Positions 1,651 to 26,135 of a DNA stretch of 64,000 nt are shown piece by piece (positions within the stretch are counted from its first letter, which is position 1; each line of letters opens with the position of its first letter). Position numbers and translations under genes: made by a program. The notes under the pieces were generated by a model. It saw nothing but the letters and a program-made list of their open reading frames with translations. It was not told the origin of the DNA and made no database searches. The stretch lies in NCBI GenBank assembly GCA_046703825.1, contig JBJKSO010000105.1, forward strand, positions 320 through 64,319, read 5' to 3'. Origin of the DNA: Candidatus Dormibacteria bacterium. Lineage in GTDB: Bacteria; Chloroflexota; Dormibacteria; Aeolococcales; Bog-877.

Positions 1651-2208
1651 CTACTCGCCGAAAATTCGAAGCTGCGTAGCCAACGTCCCGTAGTATCCGA
1701 CAATCGAGGTAAGCTCCCACGCGTCCACAGCTTGCAGCTCCGCAGTCTCTGACACACCATATTCGCGGTCACCCGTAGCTTGGCTCAGCAGGTCGACAAC
1801 GAAGGCTAAGCTTGCTCGCTCCCTGGCGTCCCGACATTCCGGTGCCGCTCCAGATCTCAGCTGCCTGATCTCATCATCTAGAACACCACTTCGCCGCGCC
1901 AAGGCCTCATGGGTAGCCCTCTCGAATCCACAATCCCAATGAGCCGCAACAAGAAGAATGGCCATCTCCCGGATCCGCGCTGGCAACTGCCCGGAGTAGC
2001 GGATGGCGCAACCAAGCGCTTGCAGGGCATCGCCAATCGCAGGAGAAAGAAGCATGGAGTTAAAGGGTCCTCGCAGCGACCCGTCAGTCTCAACCAGCGG
2101 GCTGGCCCGCTCATCTTTAATGCGAGGTCCGCCCACTATCGTTTTGTAGAGCGCCATCTGGTCCACGCTCATCTCGTGAGGCTTCAGGCGCGGTACCCGC
2201 ATACTCAT
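1651..2208 (-). CDS. carboxymuconolactone decarboxylase (AhpD-like/CMD) family protein
   Basis: ORF track, 185 aa. The protein is helical and CMD-like (AILLVAAHWDCGFERATH). Its start overlaps the upstream stop by 4 nt. Confidence 0.7.
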   Translation of the reverse strand: MSMRVPRLKPHEMSVDQMALYKTIVGGPRIKDERASPLVETDGSLRGPFNSMLLSPAIGDALQALGCAIRYSGQLPARIREMAILLVAAHWDCGFERATHEALARRSGVLDDEIRQLRSGAAPECRDARERASLAFVVDLLSQATGDREYGVSETAELQAVDAWELTSIVGYYGTLATQLRIFGE

Positions 2209-2960
2209 CTAGCTCTAAGCTCACGCAACGCCGTCAACTCCGCAACACTTGGTGGCTCACTCCTAGCGACTCTGTCCGAAACCCTCAGTTGCCATCCGGT
2301 GGCGGCCCGTGCGCCCTCTACTGTCTGGCCAGGGTGCAGGCTTACCAAGGTCAGCTCGACGCTAACAGGGTCTGGAGCCAAAATGCCTATATCTGTGACG
2401 ACTCGCCGCGGGCCACGGCCAATCATACCGAGCCGCGCGCGATCGTCACGATCGGAGCCGAATCCGACCGAGGTCCGAAAGTCCAAGCGCTCTACGAATA
2501 CTCTCGGACTCTGGCGCATTACGATGACTATCTCCTTGCACGAGGCCGCAATCTCCGGCGCACCACCAGCGCCTGGAAGGCGCACCACCGGCTTGCGGTA
2601 ATTACCGCCCACCATCGTCGTATTCAGGTTTCCAAATCGATCTATCTGCGCCCCGGTCAGCAATCCGATGTCGATCCTGCCCGGCTGCAGCCAGTAATTG
2701 AATATTTCGGGTACCGAAACCACTACATCCGCAGTCTCAGCCAAACCTCCATCTCCTATCGATAGAGGCAATGTCGACGGCTTGGACCCTATGGTTCCAG
2801 CCTCGTAGACTAGAGTCATCGACGGGGCGTGCGTGACCCGTGCCAGATTTGAGGCCGCGCTCGGCACGCCAATGCCAACGAAGCAGACGGTATGATCGTG
2901 CAACTCGCGGGCCGCAGCTATTGTCATCATCTCTTCAGAGGAATAGTCAGTGCTGGCCAT
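2205..2960 (-). CDS. family I CoA-transferase subunit B (glutaconate/3-oxoacid type)
   Basis: ORF track, 251 aa. MMTIAAARELHD..VCFVGIGVPS and GAQIDRFGNLN are typical of beta subunits. Confidence 0.85.
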   Translation of the reverse strand: MASTDYSSEEMMTIAAARELHDHTVCFVGIGVPSAASNLARVTHAPSMTLVYEAGTIGSKPSTLPLSIGDGGLAETADVVVSVPEIFNYWLQPGRIDIGLLTGAQIDRFGNLNTTMVGGNYRKPVVRLPGAGGAPEIAASCKEIVIVMRQSPRVFVERLDFRTSVGFGSDRDDRARLGMIGRGPRRVVTDIGILAPDPVSVELTLVSLHPGQTVEGARAATGWQLRVSDRVARSEPPSVAELTALRELRAR

Positions 2961-2969
2961 CAGGCTGAC

Positions 2970-3776
2970 TCACTCATGCAGGACGTGGGTCCGCATCCAG
3001 GACATAAACGCATCGCGGTCGCGGCTTATGGCATCCCACTGCTGATAAAAGTTGTTGTCGCGTTCGGAGTAGCCCGCCGCATATGAGGGATGGCACCCAT
3101 TTTTCGACTCAGATACACAACTTATGACGAACCCTGGGAGTATTATGTCGCCGGGTCGCCGATCTAGCACGTCTACCACCTCTTCCACCGTGACCAAGGA
3201 TCGCTTCGCGGCGAGTACTGCTTCCTTCTGGACTCCAATGATCCCCCACATCTGTACATTGCCGTGCCTATCGGCTCGCTGGGCGTGAATGATCGCCACG
3301 TCGGGATTCATCGCCGGTACAGCGGTCAGAATCTCACCGGTGAATGGACACGTGATCGTACTTATAGTTTTCGTTTCGCGCGGCAAATCCGTGCCAACGT
3401 ATCCGCGGAGTAGCGCCAATGGCAAGCCCGACGCTCCCGCGACGTAGCGATTTGCCATCCCGGCGTGGCTGTGTTCCTCAATTGCTAGAGGAAACGGCCA
3501 CCGACACTCAACCGCGTCGCGAAAGCGATGCAGAGAGCCGACTCCAGGATTGCCAGCCCAGGAAAACACCAAACGCTCAGCGCACCCCATTCCAATCATC
3601 TGATCGTAGATGATGTCGGGAGTCATCCGCACCAACGTAAGTCGCCGGCGTTCTTGACGAATGATCTCGTGGCCCGCTTCGAATGGTATTAAATGAGTAA
3701 ATCCCTCCAAGGCCACCGTGTCTCCATCGTGGACGAGTTCAGCTACGGCCTGAGCGAGGCTGACTATCTTGGCCAC
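2970..3776 (-). CDS. family I CoA-transferase subunit A
   Basis: ORF track, 268 aa. The N-terminus SLAQAVAELVHDGDTVALEGF is typical of alpha subunits. GTG start with a GAAGG-type SD. Confidence 0.85.
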   Translation of the reverse strand: MAKIVSLAQAVAELVHDGDTVALEGFTHLIPFEAGHEIIRQERRRLTLVRMTPDIIYDQMIGMGCAERLVFSWAGNPGVGSLHRFRDAVECRWPFPLAIEEHSHAGMANRYVAGASGLPLALLRGYVGTDLPRETKTISTITCPFTGEILTAVPAMNPDVAIIHAQRADRHGNVQMWGIIGVQKEAVLAAKRSLVTVEEVVDVLDRRPGDIILPGFVISCVSESKNGCHPSYAAGYSERDNNFYQQWDAISRDRDAFMSWMRTHVLHE

Positions 3777-3918
3777 CAGCTCTACCTTCCCGCGATCGCA
3801 GGACCACCCAGCACAACTTTAATGGTGCGTTGCGCGCCTTTGACCGAAGCGCATCCGCGAGTCGACACGCTGTCGCCACTCGCAGTCCAGGCGCGCACTT
3901 CGGGATGACGTGCCGCTC

Positions 3919-5223
3919 TCACGCAACCTCCTCAAGAGCCATCGCAAACGCCTGTAACAGCTGATCGACATGTGCATCCGTCATTACGGTGGATACGCAT
4001 CCCAAGCCGTCTTGCCCTATTAAGATGCCCGCTTCCAGCAGGCTTCGAGAAATTCGTCCAACGGCTTTGCGATCCTGGGCCTTCATCGAGCGATAATCGT
4101 AGACCGTGCCGTCGCCGATGTGAAACCGAAACAGTGACCCCTCGCCGGTAACACTGCCGCATCGACCCGACCGAGCCAGTGCCTCCGTCATGCCCACCCT
4201 GACCGCTGCTCCGAGCCGGCCGAGTCGGTCAAACTCCTCACTCCCTAGTCCGGCAAGTGTAGCCTCGCCTGCGACCATCGACACCGGATTAGCGTTGAAC
4301 GTCCCACCGTGATGTAAGGCGATACCAGCCGGCGTCTCGTCAAAGACAGTCATCACCTCCGCGGATCCCCCAACGGCCCCGATCGGGTAGCCGCCGCCTA
4401 TCAGTTTCCCAAGGGTGGTTAGATCAGGCGACACCCCGTGCAGGTCCTGGGCTCCGCCAGCGGAGAGCCGAAAAGTGATAATCTCATCCGCGATCAGCAA
4501 TGCGCCAGTCGACGTGGCACACTCTCTCAGAGTAGCTAGGAATTCAGGCGTCGCTTGAGGGAATCCCAACCGGTTAGGAAGCACGTCTACAACGATCGCG
4601 GCCAGTTGATCGCTCCTACTTAAGAGAAGCTCTCGCGTCGCAACAGAGTCGTTGAAAGGGATAACCACCACGTCTGCCAGAATCCCGCTGGGCGTCCCGG
4701 CGTTGTACGCTACTCGCTCCGGTGCATTTGGGTCACCCCAGTTGCTAGATGAGCTGTCAACGCTCACCTCTACCCAATCGTAGCTGCCATGGTACGCGCC
4801 CTCACACTTTGCGATGAGCGTTCTGCCGGTGAAGGCTCGAGCTGCCTTAACTGCTTGCATCACAGCCTCACTGCCAGAATTAGTAAAGCGGATGCTCTCG
4901 ATGCTCTTTACTCTGCCCACAATCAGTTCAGCCAAATCGATCTCGGCCTCAGTCGGAAGCCCGAAGCAACTTCCTCGCGAAGCTTGCCGCTGCACGGCGG
5001 CCACGACCGGCTCGTAGGCATGCCCATGAATAAGAGCTGTGTAGTTGTTCAGAAAGTCCAGGAACTGGTTTCCGTCCACGTCTGCTATATATGGACCTTC
5101 GCCTGCTACAGCGTATATCGGAAACGGCTTTGCGTACAGCGTCGTGCGACTGTTACCACCGGCGAGGACCTGCTGGCCCCGCTCGTGCACCCGGCGAGAC
5201 CCGTCAAACTGAACTCCTTGCAT
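3919..5223 (-). CDS. class III aminotransferase, glutamate-1-semialdehyde aminomutase (HemL)-like
   Basis: ORF track, 434 aa. Motifs read: LAGGNSR, DVDGNQFLDF, RFTNSGSEAVMQAVKAARAFTGR, ADEIITF. Confidence 0.85.
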   Translation of the reverse strand: MQGVQFDGSRRVHERGQQVLAGGNSRTTLYAKPFPIYAVAGEGPYIADVDGNQFLDFLNNYTALIHGHAYEPVVAAVQRQASRGSCFGLPTEAEIDLAELIVGRVKSIESIRFTNSGSEAVMQAVKAARAFTGRTLIAKCEGAYHGSYDWVEVSVDSSSSNWGDPNAPERVAYNAGTPSGILADVVVIPFNDSVATRELLLSRSDQLAAIVVDVLPNRLGFPQATPEFLATLRECATSTGALLIADEIITFRLSAGGAQDLHGVSPDLTTLGKLIGGGYPIGAVGGSAEVMTVFDETPAGIALHHGGTFNANPVSMVAGEATLAGLGSEEFDRLGRLGAAVRVGMTEALARSGRCGSVTGEGSLFRFHIGDGTVYDYRSMKAQDRKAVGRISRSLLEAGILIGQDGLGCVSTVMTDAHVDQLLQAFAMALEEVA

Positions 5224-6374
5224 CTCCCTCTACACTCGAATCCTACGGCAGGAAGTCCCCGCACTCTCGGGAAGACGTCCGGCCATGAGCCTCCGAAGGT
5301 GCCCCCTCCTCGGATGAAAACACTCGCCAACTCGCCGGGGGGAATCTCGACTACCAAAGGGAACATTCGGGTACCAAGGACGCTTAATATGCCTTGCGCA
5401 GCAAGGTAATCGGTTCTACCCGTCGGGTCATACTCAGGATCTACTTCGCACATGTCTAAACCGACGATTTTTTCAGACTCACCCAAAAGCGCTAGCATTG
5501 CCAGCAGGTCCGGAGCACTTATGCCGTCAAATACCGGCGCGGCCGTCCCCGGAGCGTCAGCACCGGTAACAATGTCGATGTCGACACTGATATATACTCC
5601 GTCCACTCCGCTGGTCGCATAGTCCAGCGCTTCTGCGACAGCCGATTTGACTCCGACTCGGTTCACGTAGTGAGAGGTGTACGCCTTGAAGCCTTGCCTC
5701 TGCATCTCCCGAAACTGGTTAGGCTCGGACGCAGTGTTCAGTCCTAGCCAGGCGACTTTCGCTACTCCATCCATTTCAGCGATGCGGCGCACGCAGGTAC
5801 CCTGATTGTGGGGGCCAGTGTACATCCCGTCATCACGGAAGTCGGTGTGTGAGTCAAGGTGAATGTGGGCAAGCCTAAAGTCTGGTTTGCGCTCCTTGCA
5901 TGCCTCAAGTACGCCGCGGCAGGCCGGATACGCCACGTAGTGGTCGCCGCCAAGAGTCACTGTTAGTGCCGCGCGGCGCGCGACTTCTCGTACGTGAGCA
6001 ACCGCTTCGCGCAATTGCGCGTCCCGGTCCGCGGGAATGACAGGCACATCGCCGGAGTCCACGATCGGTAGCTCTGCCGGCCACCCGGTGACGCGGCCGT
6101 CGAAGATGTTGAGCAGTCCCACGTCTGTCTGGAAGGCGTAGTACCGGACCGCGCGCAGAGAAGCCACTCTGATCGCCCTAGGCCCATGGCGCATCCCCGT
6201 CCGCCCACCAGTTGTGGCATATTCATCGAAGGGCATCCCTACGATGCCTATCGAACCTTGCGGCACTTCGGAAGGCTCTACCCATCGACTTCGTGCGAAT
6301 GACGAAACTCCTGCGTACCAAGGAGCCGCGAGATCGCGCACCCCGAATCTGTTCTGTCCCGGCACTAACACCAT
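5106..6374 (-). CDS. arginase-fold ureohydrolase (agmatinase / guanidino-acid hydrolase type)
   Basis: ORF track, 422 aa. Mn-site motifs read LGGDHYV, HLDSHTD and SVDIDIVTGADAPG. The last ~80 aa are low-complexity and overlap the next gene by 118 nt, so the 3' end is doubtful. Confidence 0.8.
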   Translation of the reverse strand: MVLVPGQNRFGVRDLAAPWYAGVSSFARSRWVEPSEVPQGSIGIVGMPFDEYATTGGRTGMRHGPRAIRVASLRAVRYYAFQTDVGLLNIFDGRVTGWPAELPIVDSGDVPVIPADRDAQLREAVAHVREVARRAALTVTLGGDHYVAYPACRGVLEACKERKPDFRLAHIHLDSHTDFRDDGMYTGPHNQGTCVRRIAEMDGVAKVAWLGLNTASEPNQFREMQRQGFKAYTSHYVNRVGVKSAVAEALDYATSGVDGVYISVDIDIVTGADAPGTAAPVFDGISAPDLLAMLALLGESEKIVGLDMCEVDPEYDPTGRTDYLAAQGILSVLGTRMFPLVVEIPPGELASVFIRGGGTFGGSWPDVFPRVRGLPAVGFECRGRCKEFSLTGLAGCTSGASRSSPVVTVARRCTQSRFRYTL

Positions 6375-6408
6375 CCTCCCTTCAACAGGCCGTTCTGCGT
6401 ATCCCTAA

Positions 6409-7392
6409 CTACCCGTGAATTAACTGCCACGACTTAAGACGCTTACCTCTAGGGTCAAGCATTAGAAGCGCGCCCCGCAAAATGCCGTCGTTGTATTCGC
6501 TGCCCGGATTGATTGCCGTGGTCTGACCCAGCTTTTGAACGGCTGCAGACTCGTGGATGTGACCGTGCAAACTTAGCATAGGCTGGTAGCGGTCAATCAC
6601 TGACCTTACCGCGCTGCTCCCGACACCGCCCACCAGCACCTGGCCGCCACGCATTCTCGGGTTGAACTCCTCATCCAAGAGCGCTGCTTGATCCAGTTGT
6701 GTATCTCGTGGCGGACAGTGCACGTTCAGGATAGCCGTCTCGGGCTCGCTGAGTTTATCCATGAGCCTATCCAACCTAGCTGCGATTTCGTCCTCCGGCA
6801 ACTCGCGCGGTGTCTTCCAAGGGGTGGGGTTGGAAAAGCCAAGTGACGCCATTTGGACGCCCCCCGGCAACTCGACAACCGCCCCATCAGTCAAAACAAC
6901 GGCAGCCTCAGCCAAATCCTCAGCCACTTCTTCATCATCATCGTTGCCAAGCATCATGTAAGTCTGCGTGCGCAGCCCGCCAAGCCGGTCACCGATCAAG
7001 CCGACCCATTCTCGAGTCTGCTTGGATATTACTGGCTTGAACAGGTCACGCTGAACTAGCTCCGGATGGGCATCGTAGGTGGCCTTTTCTTCCGGATCCA
7101 GGACTACCGGGTACTTTCCGGCGGCACGCAGTTGGCTCTCGAAGGAGGCGAGCTCCTCCTCTGACTCAATTCGGCCGTTGGGTTCATAGAGCTCTGACCG
7201 CCACTTGCCGCCGGCCTCCCTGACAATCGGTACTACGAACTTTCCAGTCAAGTCGCCGCCGAAAACGAGTGCGTCCAGTTCAAAGGTCTTCGCGGAGTTA
7301 ACCCACTTCCTAAAGGCCCGCTCCGACCCGTGAATGTCAGCGGCATAGAACACCCGCACATTCTGACTGCTTTCTCGGCGATGCCCGAACAA
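6409..7392 (-). CDS. metallophosphoesterase (calcineurin-like) family protein
   Basis: ORF track, 327 aa. Motifs read ADIHGS, GGDLTGK, LGNDDD and LHGHIHES. Confidence 0.8.
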   Translation of the reverse strand: MFGHRRESSQNVRVFYAADIHGSERAFRKWVNSAKTFELDALVFGGDLTGKFVVPIVREAGGKWRSELYEPNGRIESEEELASFESQLRAAGKYPVVLDPEEKATYDAHPELVQRDLFKPVISKQTREWVGLIGDRLGGLRTQTYMMLGNDDDEEVAEDLAEAAVVLTDGAVVELPGGVQMASLGFSNPTPWKTPRELPEDEIAARLDRLMDKLSEPETAILNVHCPPRDTQLDQAALLDEEFNPRMRGGQVLVGGVGSSAVRSVIDRYQPMLSLHGHIHESAAVQKLGQTTAINPGSEYNDGILRGALLMLDPRGKRLKSWQLIHG

Positions 7393-7396
7393 TTGG

Positions 7397-9022
7397 CTAC
7401 TCCGGGGGAAGTTCGGTGAAGGCTACCGACAAATTCACTCCACGACGCTCATTGACCCATTTGCTTGTCAGGTACATCAGAACGGCAACGACGAGCATAA
7501 TCGGGAAGGAGATAAACACCACCGGAGAATTCGCGCCGAGCGCATTATTGGTTAGATACTGCTCGAAGAAGAAGGCATAGGAAGCAAACGCCAGACCGCC
7601 CACCACTGAAATGGCCGGCAATCCGAAGATCTTCCGCCGAGAGATCGGCGCAAGGTTGTACAGGGCTTGTCGGCGCCAAGGAATCACGATGGCCACGAGG
7701 GAAACAAGTAAGAAGATCGGCAGTTGCCCAAGCAGCGCCCCAAATGCCAACTGTAGGATCGTGCTTGGTCCCCAAACCAACACTGCGCAGATGACGCAGT
7801 ACACGAGAAAGAGTACAAAGTTTGTGATGAGTGGGCTATGAGTTCTTTCGTTTACCTCAGACAGCTTCGCGGGCATAACCCTATCGAAGGACCACGCAAC
7901 CATGCTCCGCGTGGTCAAGAAGAACGCGGGGCCTTGACTCACTATGATCAGCAGCACGAGCAACCCGTTCATAGCGATGATTAGAGGGGTGTTGGACGTG
8001 AGCAGCGACGCAAAGAGCATGATGCCAGGCGGGGCAGGGAACGGGTATGCCTTCGGGTCTGCCGATGCGATGTACGTAGCTGACCCGATCCAGTTCTCTC
8101 CAAGGCTGTGGGCGGCGAACCCGAGCAAGAGCAGCAGCCCGACTACGCCGATCCCTATTGCTGAGAGGTAGGCGCGAGTTACGGTGCTCGAAGGTCGACG
8201 GATTTCTCCTCCCAGGTAGGCGGCCGTGAACCCGAACCCCATGAACCCGAATACGACTGGCGTTGCCGCAAAATCGGCACCGAGGTTGAACCCGGAGCCG
8301 GGATGATAGCCAGCCTGTGCCGCTGCCGAGAGAATCTTACCGTAGCTAGAGTGAAACGACTTCAGCACCGGTGTCAGTGCCGCACTCGTGTGCGTCGCCA
8401 GTACGAGAACGGCAAGGAGCAAACTCAGTGCACCAAAGGGGAGCAGTATCGCATAGACTTTCGTAAACGTGCGTAGCGGGAGGCTCGCGACAATAAGCGC
8501 CGCCAAAATGCACCCTATCCCAATTAGGTAGGTTGGAGCCGGGCTACTTAGTGTGGTAGCGACGTTTAGAAGGCCCGCGTTGTGGGATCGAATGCCTACA
8601 GCAGCAAAGACGGCAGCCAGGTACTGAGGAGCGATAGTCGCGAAGACCGACCCGACACTGAAGATGACGAAAAGGTTAAGCACAACGCTCGCCACAAAGC
8701 CAATGGGTGCCGACAGCGTCCTGCTTACGAATATGTAGTCCCCACCCGTCCGGGGCATCAACTGTGAGAGCCACCCCCATAGTAGAGCAAACGGTACCGC
8801 GAGCACCGCGCCGAGGACTATAGCTGCCGCCCAGTTTGATCCCGGCGCTGCGATTGGGGCGATCGTGACGATGAAAAGAGCGTAGGGCGGAGACATCACT
8901 GCGAGCGACATTAGAATAGCGCCACCCGTGCCTAGCTCTCGCACTAGTCCCGTTGTCTGTCGCGCATACACCCCGACTGCATTCGGAATGCCAGATACCC
9001 CGCCAACCGTGTCAGATGCCAC
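7397..9022 (-). CDS. APC-superfamily amino acid/polyamine permease
   Basis: ORF track, 541 aa. About 12 hydrophobic segments. GTG start. The gene sits between the regulator and the enzymes. Confidence 0.8.
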   Translation of the reverse strand: MASDTVGGVSGIPNAVGVYARQTTGLVRELGTGGAILMSLAVMSPPYALFIVTIAPIAAPGSNWAAAIVLGAVLAVPFALLWGWLSQLMPRTGGDYIFVSRTLSAPIGFVASVVLNLFVIFSVGSVFATIAPQYLAAVFAAVGIRSHNAGLLNVATTLSSPAPTYLIGIGCILAALIVASLPLRTFTKVYAILLPFGALSLLLAVLVLATHTSAALTPVLKSFHSSYGKILSAAAQAGYHPGSGFNLGADFAATPVVFGFMGFGFTAAYLGGEIRRPSSTVTRAYLSAIGIGVVGLLLLLGFAAHSLGENWIGSATYIASADPKAYPFPAPPGIMLFASLLTSNTPLIIAMNGLLVLLIIVSQGPAFFLTTRSMVAWSFDRVMPAKLSEVNERTHSPLITNFVLFLVYCVICAVLVWGPSTILQLAFGALLGQLPIFLLVSLVAIVIPWRRQALYNLAPISRRKIFGLPAISVVGGLAFASYAFFFEQYLTNNALGANSPVVFISFPIMLVVAVLMYLTSKWVNERRGVNLSVAFTELPPE

Positions 9023-14955: not shown

Positions 14956-16038
14956 TCATACGAAGAGTCGCCGGCCCCGGCGGCGGTCGAGCCAGAGGAG
15001 CCCCGCCACCGCGACACCGAACAGCACCGCCACCCCGGCCGTGCCCAGGGCCTCCGCCAGGCCCGTACCCCCCGAGTAAACGGGGGGCGCCGGAAGTGTT
15101 TGCAGCCGGTGGAGGAAGACCCGGTGGGGGGCGGCGGCAATCACCTCTCCGTGAGGTCGTGCGGCGAACACCGGCCCCAGAGTCGCCAGCGCCAGGACCG
15201 AGGAGCTGGGAGCGGTGCGGTACCAGCTGAATCCAGCGTCGGGGGTGAGTAGCGTGCCGAACCCACGAGTGGCCAGGTAGGCGGCCTGGGGGCCGTCGGA
15301 GGCCAAGGCGGTGATCACGGGGATGCCGCCGATGCCACCGTAGGGCAGGAGTTGGAAGACTGCCTGCCACCTGCCGCCGGGGTCAGCCCAGACAGTGCCG
15401 GATGGCTGAGCCACGAGCTGGGTGCCGATTCCCAGCTCCGCGATCCGGCTTCCTTGCGGCACGGGTGGTGCCCCGGGGGCGGCGTGAAAGGAGCTGCCGT
15501 CGCCGAGCACGATCCTGCCACCGACCGATGCCATCCAGGGAAGCCCGCCTCGGGGAGGCGCCAGCACCGCCGTGGCGTCCCCGGCCATCCGCCTCCTGAG
15601 GTGGCGGCCCAGGCGGCCGAAGTAGAGGCCAGCCCGGCTGGCGACCGCCAGCTGCGCCTCCCCAGTCCCACCCAAGGCGAGGCCCTGCACCGGAGGGGGA
15701 ACGCGACCCAGCCAGCGCGACGGCCCCCCGTGGCTGACCCGCGCCAAGGTCCCGTTCGAGAAGGCGACCACGCCGGTGCCGCCCACAGCGGCCACCGCGA
15801 CCGGCCGCTCCGGCGACGCGCGGAACGGGTCGAACTGGCCGGTGGCGGCGCGGTACCAGGCGGTCCGGCCAGCGGCCGTCAGCACCAAAGTCCAGCCGCC
15901 GACGGGGTTGGAGGCGACCTGCGTCAGGCTCAGGGCCGGGCCACCGCTCTGGCTCCACCAGCCTCCGGCCAGCACCAGCGGCGCTGAGAGCACCAGCCCG
16001 AGCCCGGCCAGCAAGAGCGCCAGCGGAAGCCGCTTCAA
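14956..16038 (-). CDS. secreted BNR/Asp-box-containing protein with a C-terminal hydrophobic helix and basic tail
   Basis: ORF track, 360 aa. Signal peptide MKRLPLALLLAGLGLVLSAPLVLA. Asp-box-like TPDAGFSW and ADPGGRW. The C-terminus reads YSGGTGLAEALGTAGVAVLFGVAVAGLLWLDRRRGRRLFV. The TTG start lies 1 nt after the CPBP stop. Confidence 0.75.
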   Translation of the reverse strand: MKRLPLALLLAGLGLVLSAPLVLAGGWWSQSGGPALSLTQVASNPVGGWTLVLTAAGRTAWYRAATGQFDPFRASPERPVAVAAVGGTGVVAFSNGTLARVSHGGPSRWLGRVPPPVQGLALGGTGEAQLAVASRAGLYFGRLGRHLRRRMAGDATAVLAPPRGGLPWMASVGGRIVLGDGSSFHAAPGAPPVPQGSRIAELGIGTQLVAQPSGTVWADPGGRWQAVFQLLPYGGIGGIPVITALASDGPQAAYLATRGFGTLLTPDAGFSWYRTAPSSSVLALATLGPVFAARPHGEVIAAAPHRVFLHRLQTLPAPPVYSGGTGLAEALGTAGVAVLFGVAVAGLLWLDRRRGRRLFV

Positions 16039-16039
16039 C

Positions 16040-16930
16040 TCAAGCTCCGTAGAGCCCGCTGACGATCACCGCCAGCACGAAGAGGTCCGCCACCACATGG
16101 ACCATAGCCGCCGGCAGCAGGCTGCCCGTCCTCTGCGTCATCCAGCCCCAGATCAGCCCCAGCAGCACCACGATGGGGATGAAGGTCTCCGCCGGCCCCT
16201 GGTAGGTGATGGCGACGTGCGCAACACCGAAAATGAGCGCCTGCAGCCAGAGCGCGGTCGCCGGTCGGTGGTGGCGCTCCAGCGCGGCCATCATGACACC
16301 GCGGAACTGGACCTCCTGGGCGATGGCGCTGGTGCCGTTGGCAACTCCATAGGCGACCGCGGCAGGTCCGCCCAGAGCCAGCAGCGGCACTCCCTCCCGT
16401 CCGATCCAAGGTCCGGGCAGGGCAAACGCCACCACCAGGAACGCCAGCGTCACCCCCAGCCCAAGGAGCAGCGCTCGCCCCGAGGGGCGGCTCGCGATCC
16501 TCAAGCTCGGCCGTGGCCGGGGCGAGATCAGCCAGAAGATGACCGCCATCACCAAAGCCAGCCCGAGCCACAAAGAGCCGGCGAAGGCCTGTCGGTTGAG
16601 GCTGAAGGCGGAGGCGCCCAACAGACCGGGGAAGGGGCCGGTGTAGGCGGTCAGGAATGCCCAGACCGAGTAGGGCAGGGTGAGGCTGAGAAAGGCGAAG
16701 GCCAGCGGCAGCGAAGGCCGCAACCCGGGCAGGGCGCAGGTCGCCACGACGATGGCGAAGTAGCCGGTGAGGCGCCAAACATAGGGGTCGACGCTCTGGG
16801 GGTCGCCGAACAGCCGAGGCACCAGCATCACTCCGGCCGCACCGGCAAGGATGAGCAGGAGCGGCGCCCAGCCTGCCTCCGGAGCTGAGCCCAGCGCCGA
16901 CAGCCGGCGAACCGCCGCGGCGGCGCTCAA
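16040..16930 (-). CDS. CPBP-family (CAAX/Abi) intramembrane glutamic endopeptidase
   Basis: ORF track, 296 aa. Polytopic. Motifs read QEVQFRG, FGVAH and HVVAD. Confidence 0.8.
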   Translation of the reverse strand: MSAAAAVRRLSALGSAPEAGWAPLLLILAGAAGVMLVPRLFGDPQSVDPYVWRLTGYFAIVVATCALPGLRPSLPLAFAFLSLTLPYSVWAFLTAYTGPFPGLLGASAFSLNRQAFAGSLWLGLALVMAVIFWLISPRPRPSLRIASRPSGRALLLGLGVTLAFLVVAFALPGPWIGREGVPLLALGGPAAVAYGVANGTSAIAQEVQFRGVMMAALERHHRPATALWLQALIFGVAHVAITYQGPAETFIPIVVLLGLIWGWMTQRTGSLLPAAMVHVVADLFVLAVIVSGLYGA

Positions 16931-16954
16931 CGCGGAGGCAGGCCCGCCCGGCGG

Positions 16955-17518
16955 CTAGGAAGTGGTTTCGCCGGAGCCGCTCTGCGCGGACGCGCCCGTG
17001 CCGTTGCCCGATGGAGTGATCTCGATGTCGTCCATCTCCTCGCCCCGCAGGCGGTCGACCAGGTCGTAGACCTTGTCCTGCACCGTCCCCGAGAAGAGAA
17101 AAGCGACGCCAGCGCTGGCGAAGACGCCGGCCGCCACCCACTTGGAAGAGATGTGGCGGCTGGACTTGGGCTTGACCCCAGCCTTGCGCAGCGAGCTCTG
17201 CACCTTCTTGCGGGTGTCGGGCGGCAGCGAGTTGCTCGCCTCATAGGCAGCCTGGACCACCCGCTCGGCCAGGTCGCCGGAACGCTCTCTGGCCACCTCC
17301 ACCGCCTCTGCCGCCCGCTTCTGGGCCTCCTCCGCCACCGGCTGCATCTCCTTCGCGATCCTCTCGGCAACCTCGGGGATCTGGCGGCTCACGGCCGCCA
17401 GCGCCGGCCCCAGCGCCTCACCAGCGGTCTTGACGCCGGTGCCGAGGACATCAACCACTACTTCCGCCGCATCCCCGGCAGAAATTCGCTGGGGACGCTG
17501 CCTTTGACGCAACTTCAC
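16955..17518 (-). CDS. hypothetical helical protein with one TM segment
   Basis: ORF track, 187 aa. Ala/Glu-rich amphipathic N-terminal half. TM segment WVAAGVFASAGVAFLF. It lies 24 nt upstream of the CPBP gene. Confidence 0.6.
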   Translation of the reverse strand: MKLRQRQRPQRISAGDAAEVVVDVLGTGVKTAGEALGPALAAVSRQIPEVAERIAKEMQPVAEEAQKRAAEAVEVARERSGDLAERVVQAAYEASNSLPPDTRKKVQSSLRKAGVKPKSSRHISSKWVAAGVFASAGVAFLFSGTVQDKVYDLVDRLRGEEMDDIEITPSGNGTGASAQSGSGETTS

Positions 17519-23978: not shown

Positions 23979-25804
23979 TCACTTGACCCGCCAATCCTGT
24001 GGGTAGATGTTGAGCATCGGGTCTTGGGGCGCCCAGCCTTTGATGGTGGTCCGGACTGCCGAGACCTGGAGTGGCGGAGTGGGAGGAAACAACGTGGGGA
24101 CCAGTTTCACGATCAGATTCTCATAAGCCTTCAGCTGACTGACGCCAGCACCGCCAGCGTAGGAAGCCTCGATCGCTCTGGTAACTGCGGAGTTCGAGTA
24201 GCCGTCTCCGCTGTCGGCCGCCTTAGGCGCGTAGATATCCTCACCAGTTGGGTAGAAGTCTGGCTCGTATAGGAAGCGTGGTGCGACCAAGAATGCCATC
24301 TGCCATGTGCACTTGGCAGAAATAGCGGTCGTACCGGCGCAGGCGGTCTCCTCTCCCAACAACGTAGACAGCGTGCCCGACTTTAGGGTAATGTGCACAC
24401 CCGCCTTTCCAAACTCGATTGAAGCAGTGCGCTCTCGGTCTGCAGCGCCAACATTCCGCTGGAGTACAAGAATTGGAACTGCAATGGGTCTCCCTCGCCT
24501 ATCCCCGCACCACACTCATTGGCGCCGGCCCCTGGTCTAACGCAGCTCGAGGTTCCGCCAGGAACAACTCTCCAGCCATGCTCTTTAAGCACACTTTCAG
24601 CCCGTTTCGGATTGTAGGAGTAGAGCCCTTTCCGCTCTAAGCTGGACACAAAGTTGCTCGCGGGCTTCAGCGGGACCGGTCCATTGGTGATGGTAGCCAA
24701 GCCGTCGTAGACGGCCTTAATGAGCTGTGGCTGATCTATCAGCATCTGAAGCGCCTGCCGTACGTAGGGCTGGCTCAGGATCGGTCCGCTTTGTGGGTTG
24801 AGGTAGTCCAGATCGATATAGGTGAAGGCCCATCCCCACCATGGAACCACGCTGTAGCCGCGCTTCTTCAATACCCCGGCTTGAGCAGTGTCTTGAGGAG
24901 GGATGTAGCCGTAGTCCACGGCACCGGATCGCAACGCATTAAATTCGGCCGTATCCGAAGTGAACGGCTCCAAGATGAACTTGGAAACGGAGCCACTGAC
25001 CTTCCCGGAATAGGAATGGTTCCGAGCAAAAACGACATAGCCATTCGAATCGTAGGTCTGTAGTCGCCAGGGCCCGTCGACGACGCGCCAGAGTGGGTTC
25101 GTGTCGTACGTAGGCAAGTTCTTGGCTTGTCCAATCAAGTAGTTGTAGACGGCCCGAGCGCCCGAAGGGGTGGCGTCATACGCACCAGGTGCAGTGCCCG
25201 CTTCGCGATCCCACGCCATAGGCATGGGCGTGACCTGGCTCAGCTCGTTGTAGGTGAACCAGTAGGGAGAGAACGAGTGTTCCAAAGTAAACCGGACCGC
25301 ATCTCCGGCCACCATCTTGTAGGCTTTGACGTTGTCTGGGAAGGTGCCGGCTGCGTAGGGTCCGAAGTTAGTCTTCTCTTGTTCCAGCAGATTCATCCAG
25401 AAGATCACGTCACGGGCGTCTACAGTCTCGCCGTTCGACCACTTCCAACCCTTCATCCGCACCGTAACCACCGTGTCGCCGTTCGAGTAGACGGGAGGGT
25501 ACGCTGCGCTCAGTGACGGGTTAAGCACAGGTTTGCCGTCCTTGCCAAACCAGTACAACGGCAGGTACATGAGATATTGAAACTGTTCCTGATTGGTCGA
25601 GTCGAAGTAGGCACCACTCATCATTGGAAAGATGTAATTAGGTGGAGAACCTGGCTGCTCGGCGAATGTGACGCTGCTAGCAGATGTACCCTTGGCTTGA
25701 GCAGGAGCCCCTGGCACAAGGACCACGGCTACCATAGCGACGATCCCAGCGATCGCTAGACCCAACTTGCGTCCGAGGCTGTCCCCGATCGACGCATCCC
25801 CCAT
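23979..25804 (-). pseudogene. family-5 (peptide/nickel-type) ABC solute-binding protein, interrupted by a frameshift
   Basis: ATG at 25804 follows GGGAGGGAGG. Signal peptide with AQA. The frame ends ...ALLQSSLERRVCTLP* at 24383. The natural continuation IEFGKAGVHITLKSG...WRVK runs in another frame to 23979. No permease or ATPase genes are adjacent. Confidence 0.75.
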
Positions 25805-26135
25805 CAACCTCCCTCCCAATGTCGAGTGTCGTCAATCATAGCTGGCGCTTTGGGCGAGCGCCATACACCGAGAGGTGATCCAAGCGTGCCTGAGGCGTCC
25901 CGGGCGGTCAGGGACCGGGCGGCTGCCGGGGCGCGAGGAATAGAACGGGCCCGATGAGCGGGCGGGTGAGTCGAAGTCAACAAATTGGCATATCCGCCTT
26001 GCCGGTTGTCCGTTCGGCGCAGTTACCAGGAAACCCCTTAGGTCGCCAACGGGATGGGGCTTCACAGCCGTGGATCGGGGCCGGTCGGCAGAAGCGGCAG
26101 GCCCACCCCAGGCAGGGCCCGAGTCGCAAGTCACC

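Follow-up and report, generated by a model that had tools for sequence, protein, structure and literature searches.

A pair of adjacent genes in an uncultured member of the Dormibacteria raises the question of whether a bacterial CPBP (CAAX-protease-like) membrane protein cuts its neighbour or holds it. The pair lies on the minus strand of a 64,000-nucleotide stretch of contig JBJKSO010000105.1 (GenBank assembly GCA_046703825.1), here called the window, in a genome of 2.18 Mb and 121 contigs that is 90.8% complete. The upstream gene encodes a polytopic CPBP protein, and the downstream gene an exported beta-propeller protein that ends in a transmembrane helix and a cluster of arginines. Most bacterial CPBP proteins have, to our knowledge, no known job, and those that have been studied are divided between sorting proteases (the myxosortases) and non-catalytic scaffolds (SpdC, Abx1 and CflP). 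The original prediction for this locus, drawn from the letters of the window, was of a protease and its substrate belonging to an undescribed C-terminal processing system, encoded in one unit with a third, 187-residue protein. The pair proved to be cognate; no support was found for a catalytic glutamate, for the SGGTG sequence as the sorting motif, for membership of the myxosortases, for further carriers of the tail or for the third gene as part of the conserved core. We lean, guardedly, towards a different answer, in which a non-hydrolytic CPBP scaffold holds the juxtamembrane and transmembrane segment of the propeller protein.

The case for a cognate pair begins with gene order in related loci. 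In the window's own family, a CPBP ortholog lies on the same strand upstream of the propeller gene in all 35 loci with flank, at estimated gaps of -3 to 39 nt. The pair is there part of a block made up of genes for an NCS1 permease, a ThiD-like kinase, the 187-aa protein, the CPBP protein, the propeller and a nucleotidyl-transferase/phosphomannomutase fusion, with all six present in 31 of 36 loci; because of this block synteny, adjacency within the family weighs little. The sister lineage comprises 74 loci, found with a nine-sequence subset (A3) of the short-form propeller alignment A2; four are cut on the 5' side, and all 70 that have a 5' flank again show a CPBP ortholog on the same strand, upstream of the propeller gene. 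None of the outer genes of the window's family was detected in these loci, apart from a weak match to the sugar-nucleotide fusion in L105, and the annotated outer neighbours are purA, a DUF255 thioredoxin gene, ABC transporter genes and an HNH gene. The estimated gap between the two genes is 3-149 nt in 61 of the 70 loci and 1.15-2.36 kb in the other nine (L095, L096, L100, L102-L105, L111 and L113). In the two wide-gap loci that are annotated (L096 and L105), the space is occupied by an opposite-strand gene for a GFO/IDH/MocA oxidoreductase, and in L096 also by an additional Pro/Gly/Gln-rich open reading frame (ORF) without a Pfam family; this ORF was considered as a relative of the propeller and rejected, its sequence being unrelated. 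Eight of the nine wide-gap loci (all but L105) carry SGGSLTGKW, or a one-residue variant of it, after the PxxPxY of the propeller tail, a sequence that resembles the SGGTG of the window.

Inheritance of the two genes follows the same pattern. Among 151 genomes of the class, 44 hold both genes, 106 hold neither, and one (G237, in which the match lies at a contig end) holds the CPBP gene only. The co-occurrence of this CPBP clade with tailed propellers, proposed as a check when the locus was first described, is near-perfect, with that one mismatch. At the thresholds used, both genes are missing from four genomes of the sister family and from 102 of 102 genomes of three other families; among the genomes searched, this two-gene membrane module is confined to one order of the class. 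With adjacency in 35/35 and 70/70 loci, outer neighbours that have changed, and presence in 44 and 45 of 151 genomes, the CPBP protein and the propeller do belong together as cognates, as had been proposed. The junction between their genes is tight: the CPBP frame stops at TGA and, one base on, the propeller frame starts at TTG, with GGAG 7-10 nt 5' of that codon. The frame for the 187-aa protein stops at TAG, with 24 nt between this codon and the TTG that opens the 296-aa CPBP frame, and the three-ORF minus-strand unit with its 24-nt and 1-nt gaps is present as described. To judge from the sequence of the junction, the propeller gene is probably translationally coupled to the CPBP gene.

The upstream product belongs to the CPBP family by its match to PF02517 (E 1.9e-16; 60.6 bits against a cut-off of 22.4). 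Its database gene call is 262 aa long (P0026), and the longer, 296-aa start is favoured because homologs are mostly 294-300 aa and a helix is modelled at residues 21-40. The AlphaFold2 (AF2) model, with a predicted local distance difference test score (pLDDT) of 85.8, has about nine long helices. In a VIA-align comparison the best match is SpdC (6u0o_A; Z 15.9, root-mean-square deviation 3.6, 208 residues aligned) and the second MmRce1 (4cad_C; Z 12.2, root-mean-square deviation 4.0, 196 aligned), the next best having Z 5.9; Foldseek gave the 4cad match an E of 0.23 and a probability of 0.99, and VIA-align resolved it. The model comparison places the protein in the multi-helix membrane fold of the Rce1/SpdC type. 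Neither the protein nor its profile, used as a query against PDB sequences, recovered an Rce1 or SpdC chain, and an Atlas search with the protein returned generic CPBP clusters only. The best 120 of 198 matches to profile A5 are all members of the clade (E <= 1.7e-103), with no outgroup among them. Orthologs in the sister lineage are 32-46% identical to the window's protein, and residues D43, P44, D48, P49, R53, G177, R178, G245 and P246, in the loops, are invariant and specific to the clade.

What sets the clade apart is the first of its three motifs. The original prediction named the protein a glutamic endopeptidase with the motifs QEVQFRG, FGVAH and HVVAD; the family and the motifs are indeed there, but QEVQFRG departs from the catalytic EExxxR at its first position. 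In an alignment of 106 sequences (that of the window and 105 orthologs), Q-E-x-Q-F-R is found in 106 of 106, with Q205, E206, F209 and R210 each invariant, so that glutamine stands throughout at the first Glu of EExxxR. FxxxH and HxxxD/N are retained: F234 and H238 of motif 2 occur in all 106, H278 of motif 3 in 105, and position 282 is Asp in 84 and Glu in 21. The two CPBP paralogs encoded in the same genome align a canonical EE with Q205-E206, and it is on these paralogs that the assignment of Gln and Glu rests. In CPBP proteins, according to PMC13692083, the first Glu of EExxxR is catalytic and forms a dyad with the His of motif 2; the second, retained in catalytic and non-catalytic members, is held in a buried salt bridge to the Arg. 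In MrtX, E146 and H188 are described as a water-bridging pair (PMC11980579). Read in this way, the pocket of the window's protein keeps the structural Glu-Arg pair, both His residues and the Asp, with an invariant Gln in place of the Glu that would activate water.

The partner's C-terminal tail has a strongly conserved signature. Its proposed layout of motif, hydrophobic helix and Arg cluster (DRRRGRR) is real, although the SGGTG that was to serve as the motif is variable and the conserved signature lies further upstream. In the 22-sequence propeller alignment (A1), the positions towards the C-terminus that never vary are H310, L312, Q313, P316, P319, Y321, T333 and V360, the last residue. When 66 tails of the two lineages are compared, the signature is HxLQxxPxxPxY, with H, L, both P and Y unchanged throughout and Q nearly so; about ten variable residues follow, then the helix (with the majority consensus WLGTAAVTL at its start) and then basic residues. 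In the window's family the protein closes, at 32 of 36 loci, with a long Arg run ending in S or F followed by V, and the sister lineage ends in shorter, variable RR tails. The 66 tails show no conserved Cys column, and the tail of the window's protein has no Cys.

Every propeller homolog in a locus read to the stop codon carries this tail, with the exception of L110, where the examined frame ends in unrelated hydrophobic sequence. A strict motif pattern failed in five loci, of which four have the tail with one position changed and the fifth (L108) is cut by the locus end; no tail-less homologs were found within the propeller family. A proteome-wide search for further carriers, with a hidden Markov model (HMM) of the tail, had been suggested as a check, and it came out negative. 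The tail HMM, run against the window's genome, recovered only the propeller itself (E 4.5e-22; next match 0.53), a second HMM covering both lineages again found only that protein, the signature written as a regular expression matched one frame in the whole genome, and tail-only matches among 1.84 billion representative proteins were all fragments of the propeller family. In a tail-profile search of 121 'phylum' genomes, strong matches were confined to the window's genome (G000) and G119, all others having E >5e-4 and resembling noise; this search is not used as evidence of absence, because only 54 first-look candidates were scored per genome and it missed genomes later shown to hold the family. 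A Cys-rich protein of the window's genome (contig C38:26400-27326, plus strand), which from its Cys pattern alone we take to be a 4Fe-4S ferredoxin-type subunit, has LPPSPQY, about ten residues, a helix and RRK; it receives no score from either tail HMM at E up to 10, and the likeness was set aside as chance. Since the tail is on nearly every propeller homolog and on no other protein, and since the start of its helix is conserved, it appears to be an integral part of the propeller protein and no portable tag.

The body of the partner is modelled as a propeller. Neither Pfam (E <= 0.1) nor NCBIfam gave a match to the 360-aa protein. A homolog search found 24 homologs, of which those named by source are labelled Dormibacteria, bar one labelled Verrucomicrobiae. 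The AF2 model built with 22 homologs (pLDDT 81.5) consists of an N-terminal helix, a seven-bladed propeller, a low-confidence linker at residues 316-326 (pLDDT <50) and the C-terminal helix; VIA-align matches residues 22-314 to seven-bladed propellers at Z of about 27, and the Foldseek matches include Ycf48 (5ojr). A profile search of the 1.84 billion representatives returned 102 proteins, and of seven remote matches scanned five (E 3.3e-11 to 4.1e-6) were Sortilin-Vps10, PSII_BNR or BNR Asp-box proteins. It is because of these five that the BNR-type label given at the outset is valid at the level of remote homology, where the propeller fold agrees with it; the protein itself matches none of the BNR, PSII_BNR and Sortilin-Vps10 profiles. 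One of the two Asp-box motifs first named, TPDAGFSW, is conserved, with five invariant positions in the 22 sequences, and the other, ADPGGRW, is not conserved in A1. The protein thus resembles the Ycf48, Sortilin-Vps10 and BNR propellers in its seven blades and its Asp-box-like S/T-x-D-x-G-x-x-W, and differs from them in having a single conserved site of this kind and, at the C-terminus, a membrane anchor that carries a signature of its own. The signal peptide that had been read from the letters is borne out, as a putative one, by a hydrophobic run from about residue 3 and a model helix at residues 4-25.

About 40 shorter relatives of 260-330 aa, from the other lineage of the same order, share the C-terminal half and the tail. 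These short forms (P0025 and P0103-P0138) keep an N-terminal PWW, and in a 25-sequence alignment of them (A2) the second W never varies and the first hardly ever does; DGGDDW stands at the position of TPDAGFSW. Once the signal peptide and tail are subtracted, their length is too small for seven blades. P0025 has no Pfam family at E <= 0.1. One relative, P0112 (528 aa), continues past the tail helix into an RDD-family membrane domain (PF06271, E 5.3e-15), and the C-terminal end is therefore extendable in some lineages.

On these grounds we think it plausible, though we hold it tentatively, that the CPBP protein is a non-hydrolytic scaffold for its partner, a stable pair being more likely than an enzyme with a cleaved substrate because the CPBP protein lacks the key catalytic Glu. 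The protein, with its conserved pocket and clade-specific loops but without a general base, would dock the juxtamembrane motif of the propeller, or its helix, or both; the tail would stay uncut, and the propeller would be held at the outer face of the membrane much as SpdC holds the single-pass SagB. Some known systems come close to this arrangement. SpdC of S. aureus binds SagB non-catalytically through the SagB transmembrane helix and an extracellular loop (10.1101/2020.05.21.109470, in part), and the likeness predicted here is that of an eight-helix CPBP fold holding a single-pass protein with an extracellular domain (6U0O). SpdC, the best structural match in our comparison, and the window's CPBP protein are 12% identical in sequence; unlike SpdC, the latter keeps all residues of motifs 2 and 3, and SagB is a glucosaminidase where the partner here is a propeller. 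The CPBP scaffolds Abx1 and CflP of group B Streptococcus are likened to it by the same general role, in the available part of PMC13692083, although their partner is a histidine kinase. CflP is described there as a non-catalytic scaffold in which Val has taken the catalytic position and the second Glu, Arg, the two His residues and Asn are retained; the pattern is the same here except for the substituting residue, Gln for Val, and the Gln is invariant over the whole clade. A complex prediction for the CPBP protein (A5) and residues 300-360 of the propeller (A1) gave ipSAE values of 0.01 and 0.00 against a mark of 0.32, and speaks neither for nor against binding.

Several points count against a scaffold. 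The His, His and Asp of the pocket are strictly conserved, so that catalysis with altered chemistry could persist, and a Gln beside a Glu is no proof of inactivity, since by its sequence such a site could still be catalytic; the eqolisins, which are unrelated glutamic peptidases, rely on a pair of Gln and Glu. Dedicated sorting systems, too, are marked by one-to-one adjacency. The helix of SagB is N-terminal and that of the propeller C-terminal, and the model's higher Z with SpdC, compared with MmRce1, may come only from bacterial as opposed to archaeal origin. The tallies over 151 genomes include five unpublished ones (G137, G153, G171, G198 and G246), and all the genomes are related, for which reason the co-occurrence is given as counts of non-independent events and without statistics.

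Of the other explanations, the one that survives best supposes that the tail is a plain anchor, that the CPBP pocket serves a lipid- or polyprenyl-linked envelope precursor or another membrane enzyme, and that the propeller is an extracytoplasmic ligand-binding partner in a linked pathway. Conservation of the pair suits it, as do the invariant loops of the CPBP protein, which point to extra binding surfaces, and there is a parallel in the cavity of SpdC, which may bind the lipid carrier of nascent peptidoglycan (10.1101/2020.05.21.109470, in part). The gene order of the window's family is also suggestive, the pair lying directly upstream of the nucleotidyl-transferase/phosphomannomutase fusion in 36 of 36 loci. 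In the sister lineage that sugar-nucleotide gene was not detected next to the two genes, bar the weak match in L105; the juxtamembrane motif and the helix start (H, L, P, P and Y in 66/66 tails) are conserved beyond what a generic anchor needs, and the ligand is purely putative. We regard such a linked pathway as possible, if on the unlikely side.

An active, dedicated sortase-like system, in which the CPBP endopeptidase removes the helix and Arg cluster of its one neighbouring substrate and possibly re-anchors the propeller, is unlikely. Myxosortases (MrtX, MrtJ, MrtS, MrtA and MrtP) pair CPBP proteins with exported proteins ending in a motif, a transmembrane helix and an Arg cluster, and are shown to cleave such tails (PMC11980579 and 10.1101/2023.06.07.544157, both in part). 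Strict one-to-one adjacency and co-occurrence is the criterion by which dedicated neighbour pairs are recognised for sorting systems generally (10.1101/2023.06.07.544157, in part), and the locus has it, together with a tripartite tail that bears an invariant motif and a CPBP protein with conserved residues in motifs 2 and 3. Weak similarities to Mrt models exist as well, but their NCBIfam scores, at 21-43 bits, lie far below cut-offs of 75-250 (MrtS 43.2/130; MrtX 37.7/180; Mrt_core 36.1/100; MrtJ 25.2/75; MrtP 23.2/250; MrtA 21.3/200). Of the Mrt features, the one-to-one neighbour pair is found here; the many-carrier form, the invariant Cys and scores above the family cut-offs are absent. Gln replaces the catalytic first Glu in 106/106 sequences; the signature has no Cys, whereas the Mrt signals described in the available part of 10.1101/2023.06.07.544157 all have an invariant one; the invariant motif ends about ten residues before the helix, and the residues that abut the helix (SGGTG and its counterparts) vary. 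The tail occurs on a single protein family, with no second carrier in the genome or among the 1.84 billion representatives and no tail-less homologs in the family, and the best structural match of the CPBP protein is the non-catalytic SpdC. With MmRce1 and eukaryotic Rce1 (4CAD) the fold and the Pfam family are shared, but Rce1 has EExxxR with a catalytic first Glu where QExQFR stands here, and it cleaves prenylated CAAX ends, while the propeller ends in an R-rich stretch and LFV without Cys.

Less likely again, and offered as speculation, is that the Gln-for-Glu clade is a former sorting protease turned substrate trap, with the tail as its docking handle, or else a Cys-independent Gln-Glu 'dormisortase' that still cuts. 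If true, either would amount to an undescribed class of CPBP and partner, and to a naturally occurring E-to-Q test of how intramembrane glutamic proteases catalyse. That the two genes are neighbours by descent with no functional coupling, as the syntenic six-gene block of the window's family (31/36 loci) would allow, is highly improbable, given that the pair persists where outer neighbours changed, that both genes are jointly missing from four sister-family genomes and that their stop and start codons overlap or nearly abut.

Table 1. Features of the CPBP-propeller locus and its surroundings in the window
Feature	Position	Strand	Basis
187-aa helical protein	16955-17518	-	ORF list; one hydrophobic segment
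CPBP-fold polytopic membrane protein, 296 aa, Gln-Glu variant clade	16040-16930	-	PF02517 match
Motif 1, Q205-E-V-Q-F-R210 (QEVQFRG = residues 205-211)	16301-16318	-	Gln at first Glu of EExxxR
Motif 2, F234-G-V-A-H238 (FxxxH)	16217-16231	-	Alignment of 106
Motif 3, H278-V-V-A-D282 (HxxxD/N type)	16085-16099	-	Alignment of 106
Exported single-pass Asp-box-like beta-propeller protein, 360 aa + stop	14956-16038	-	Homologs and AF2 model
Putative signal peptide, ~residues 1-24 (MKR + hydrophobic run + VLAGG)	15967-16038	-	Hydropathy and model; cleavage site inferred
Invariant W27-W28 just after signal peptide	15955-15960	-	Alignment A1
Asp-box-like site, T265-P-D-A-G-F-S-W272	15223-15246	-	T265, P266, D267, G269 and W272 invariant in A1 (22 sequences)
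Juxtamembrane signature, H310-R-L-Q-T-L-P-A-P-P-V-Y321	15076-15111	-	66 tails
C-terminal transmembrane helix, residues 326-350	14989-15063	-	Model helix 326-353; hydropathy peak 332-334
Cytoplasmic basic tail, DRRRGRR then terminal LFV	14959-14988	-	Sequence; topology inferred
Nucleotidyl-transferase/phosphomannomutase fusion, 837 aa	12402-14915	-	
LPATG protein, 376 aa	20220-21350	-	LPATG, helix and basic tail
Polytopic membrane protein, 586 aa	21673-23433	-	Sub-threshold GT87 match

The neighbouring genes of the window (Table 1) have their own patterns. The 187-aa protein, which the original prediction counted in the unit as a helical single-pass protein, does have one hydrophobic 19-mer, starting at residue 128, and shows a weak apolipoprotein- or phasin-like similarity in Pfam, below the cut-offs. 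Of 151 genomes of the class it turned up in 15, all of the window's family, and with the window's protein as query there was no match in 34 sister-family genomes; the gene is a family-specific neighbour that stands outside the conserved core. The product of the sugar-nucleotide gene joins a nucleotidyl transferase (mannose-1-phosphate guanylyltransferase-like, with a hexapeptide domain) to a phosphoglucomutase/phosphomannomutase. The 586-aa membrane protein has a GT87 glycosyltransferase match at E 0.004, and many related loci preserve its N-terminal part upstream of the NCS1 gene. The GC fraction of the window is 0.57-0.58 at 2001-8000 and 24001-26000, against 0.66-0.72 over most of its length, and the low-GC stretches may be foreign or non-coding.

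A regular expression for LPXTG-type C-terminal tails did not flag the propeller and flags other proteins only, in line with the statement made at the outset that the propeller motif is not LPXTG. The nearby LPATG protein mentioned there is also real and is flagged by the expression; it is Thr/Ser-rich and has no Pfam family. The genome's one match to sortase (PF04203) is on another contig (C62:16930-17247), and a frame on contig C114 is flagged by the same expression, its LPLSG lying after the helix.

Our literature search found no paper on QExxxR, and none on Dormibacter together with CAAX. The locus extends the known CPBP scaffolds, or the dedicated CPBP-partner systems, by a new variant: a whole CPBP clade with a natural Glu-to-Gln change at the catalytic position, genetically locked to one single-pass partner. 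The pair is a testable case of how CPBP folds recognise a partner helix, and of whether the pocket serves binding and not cleavage, and it marks an order-specific feature of the envelope of uncultured Dormibacteria.

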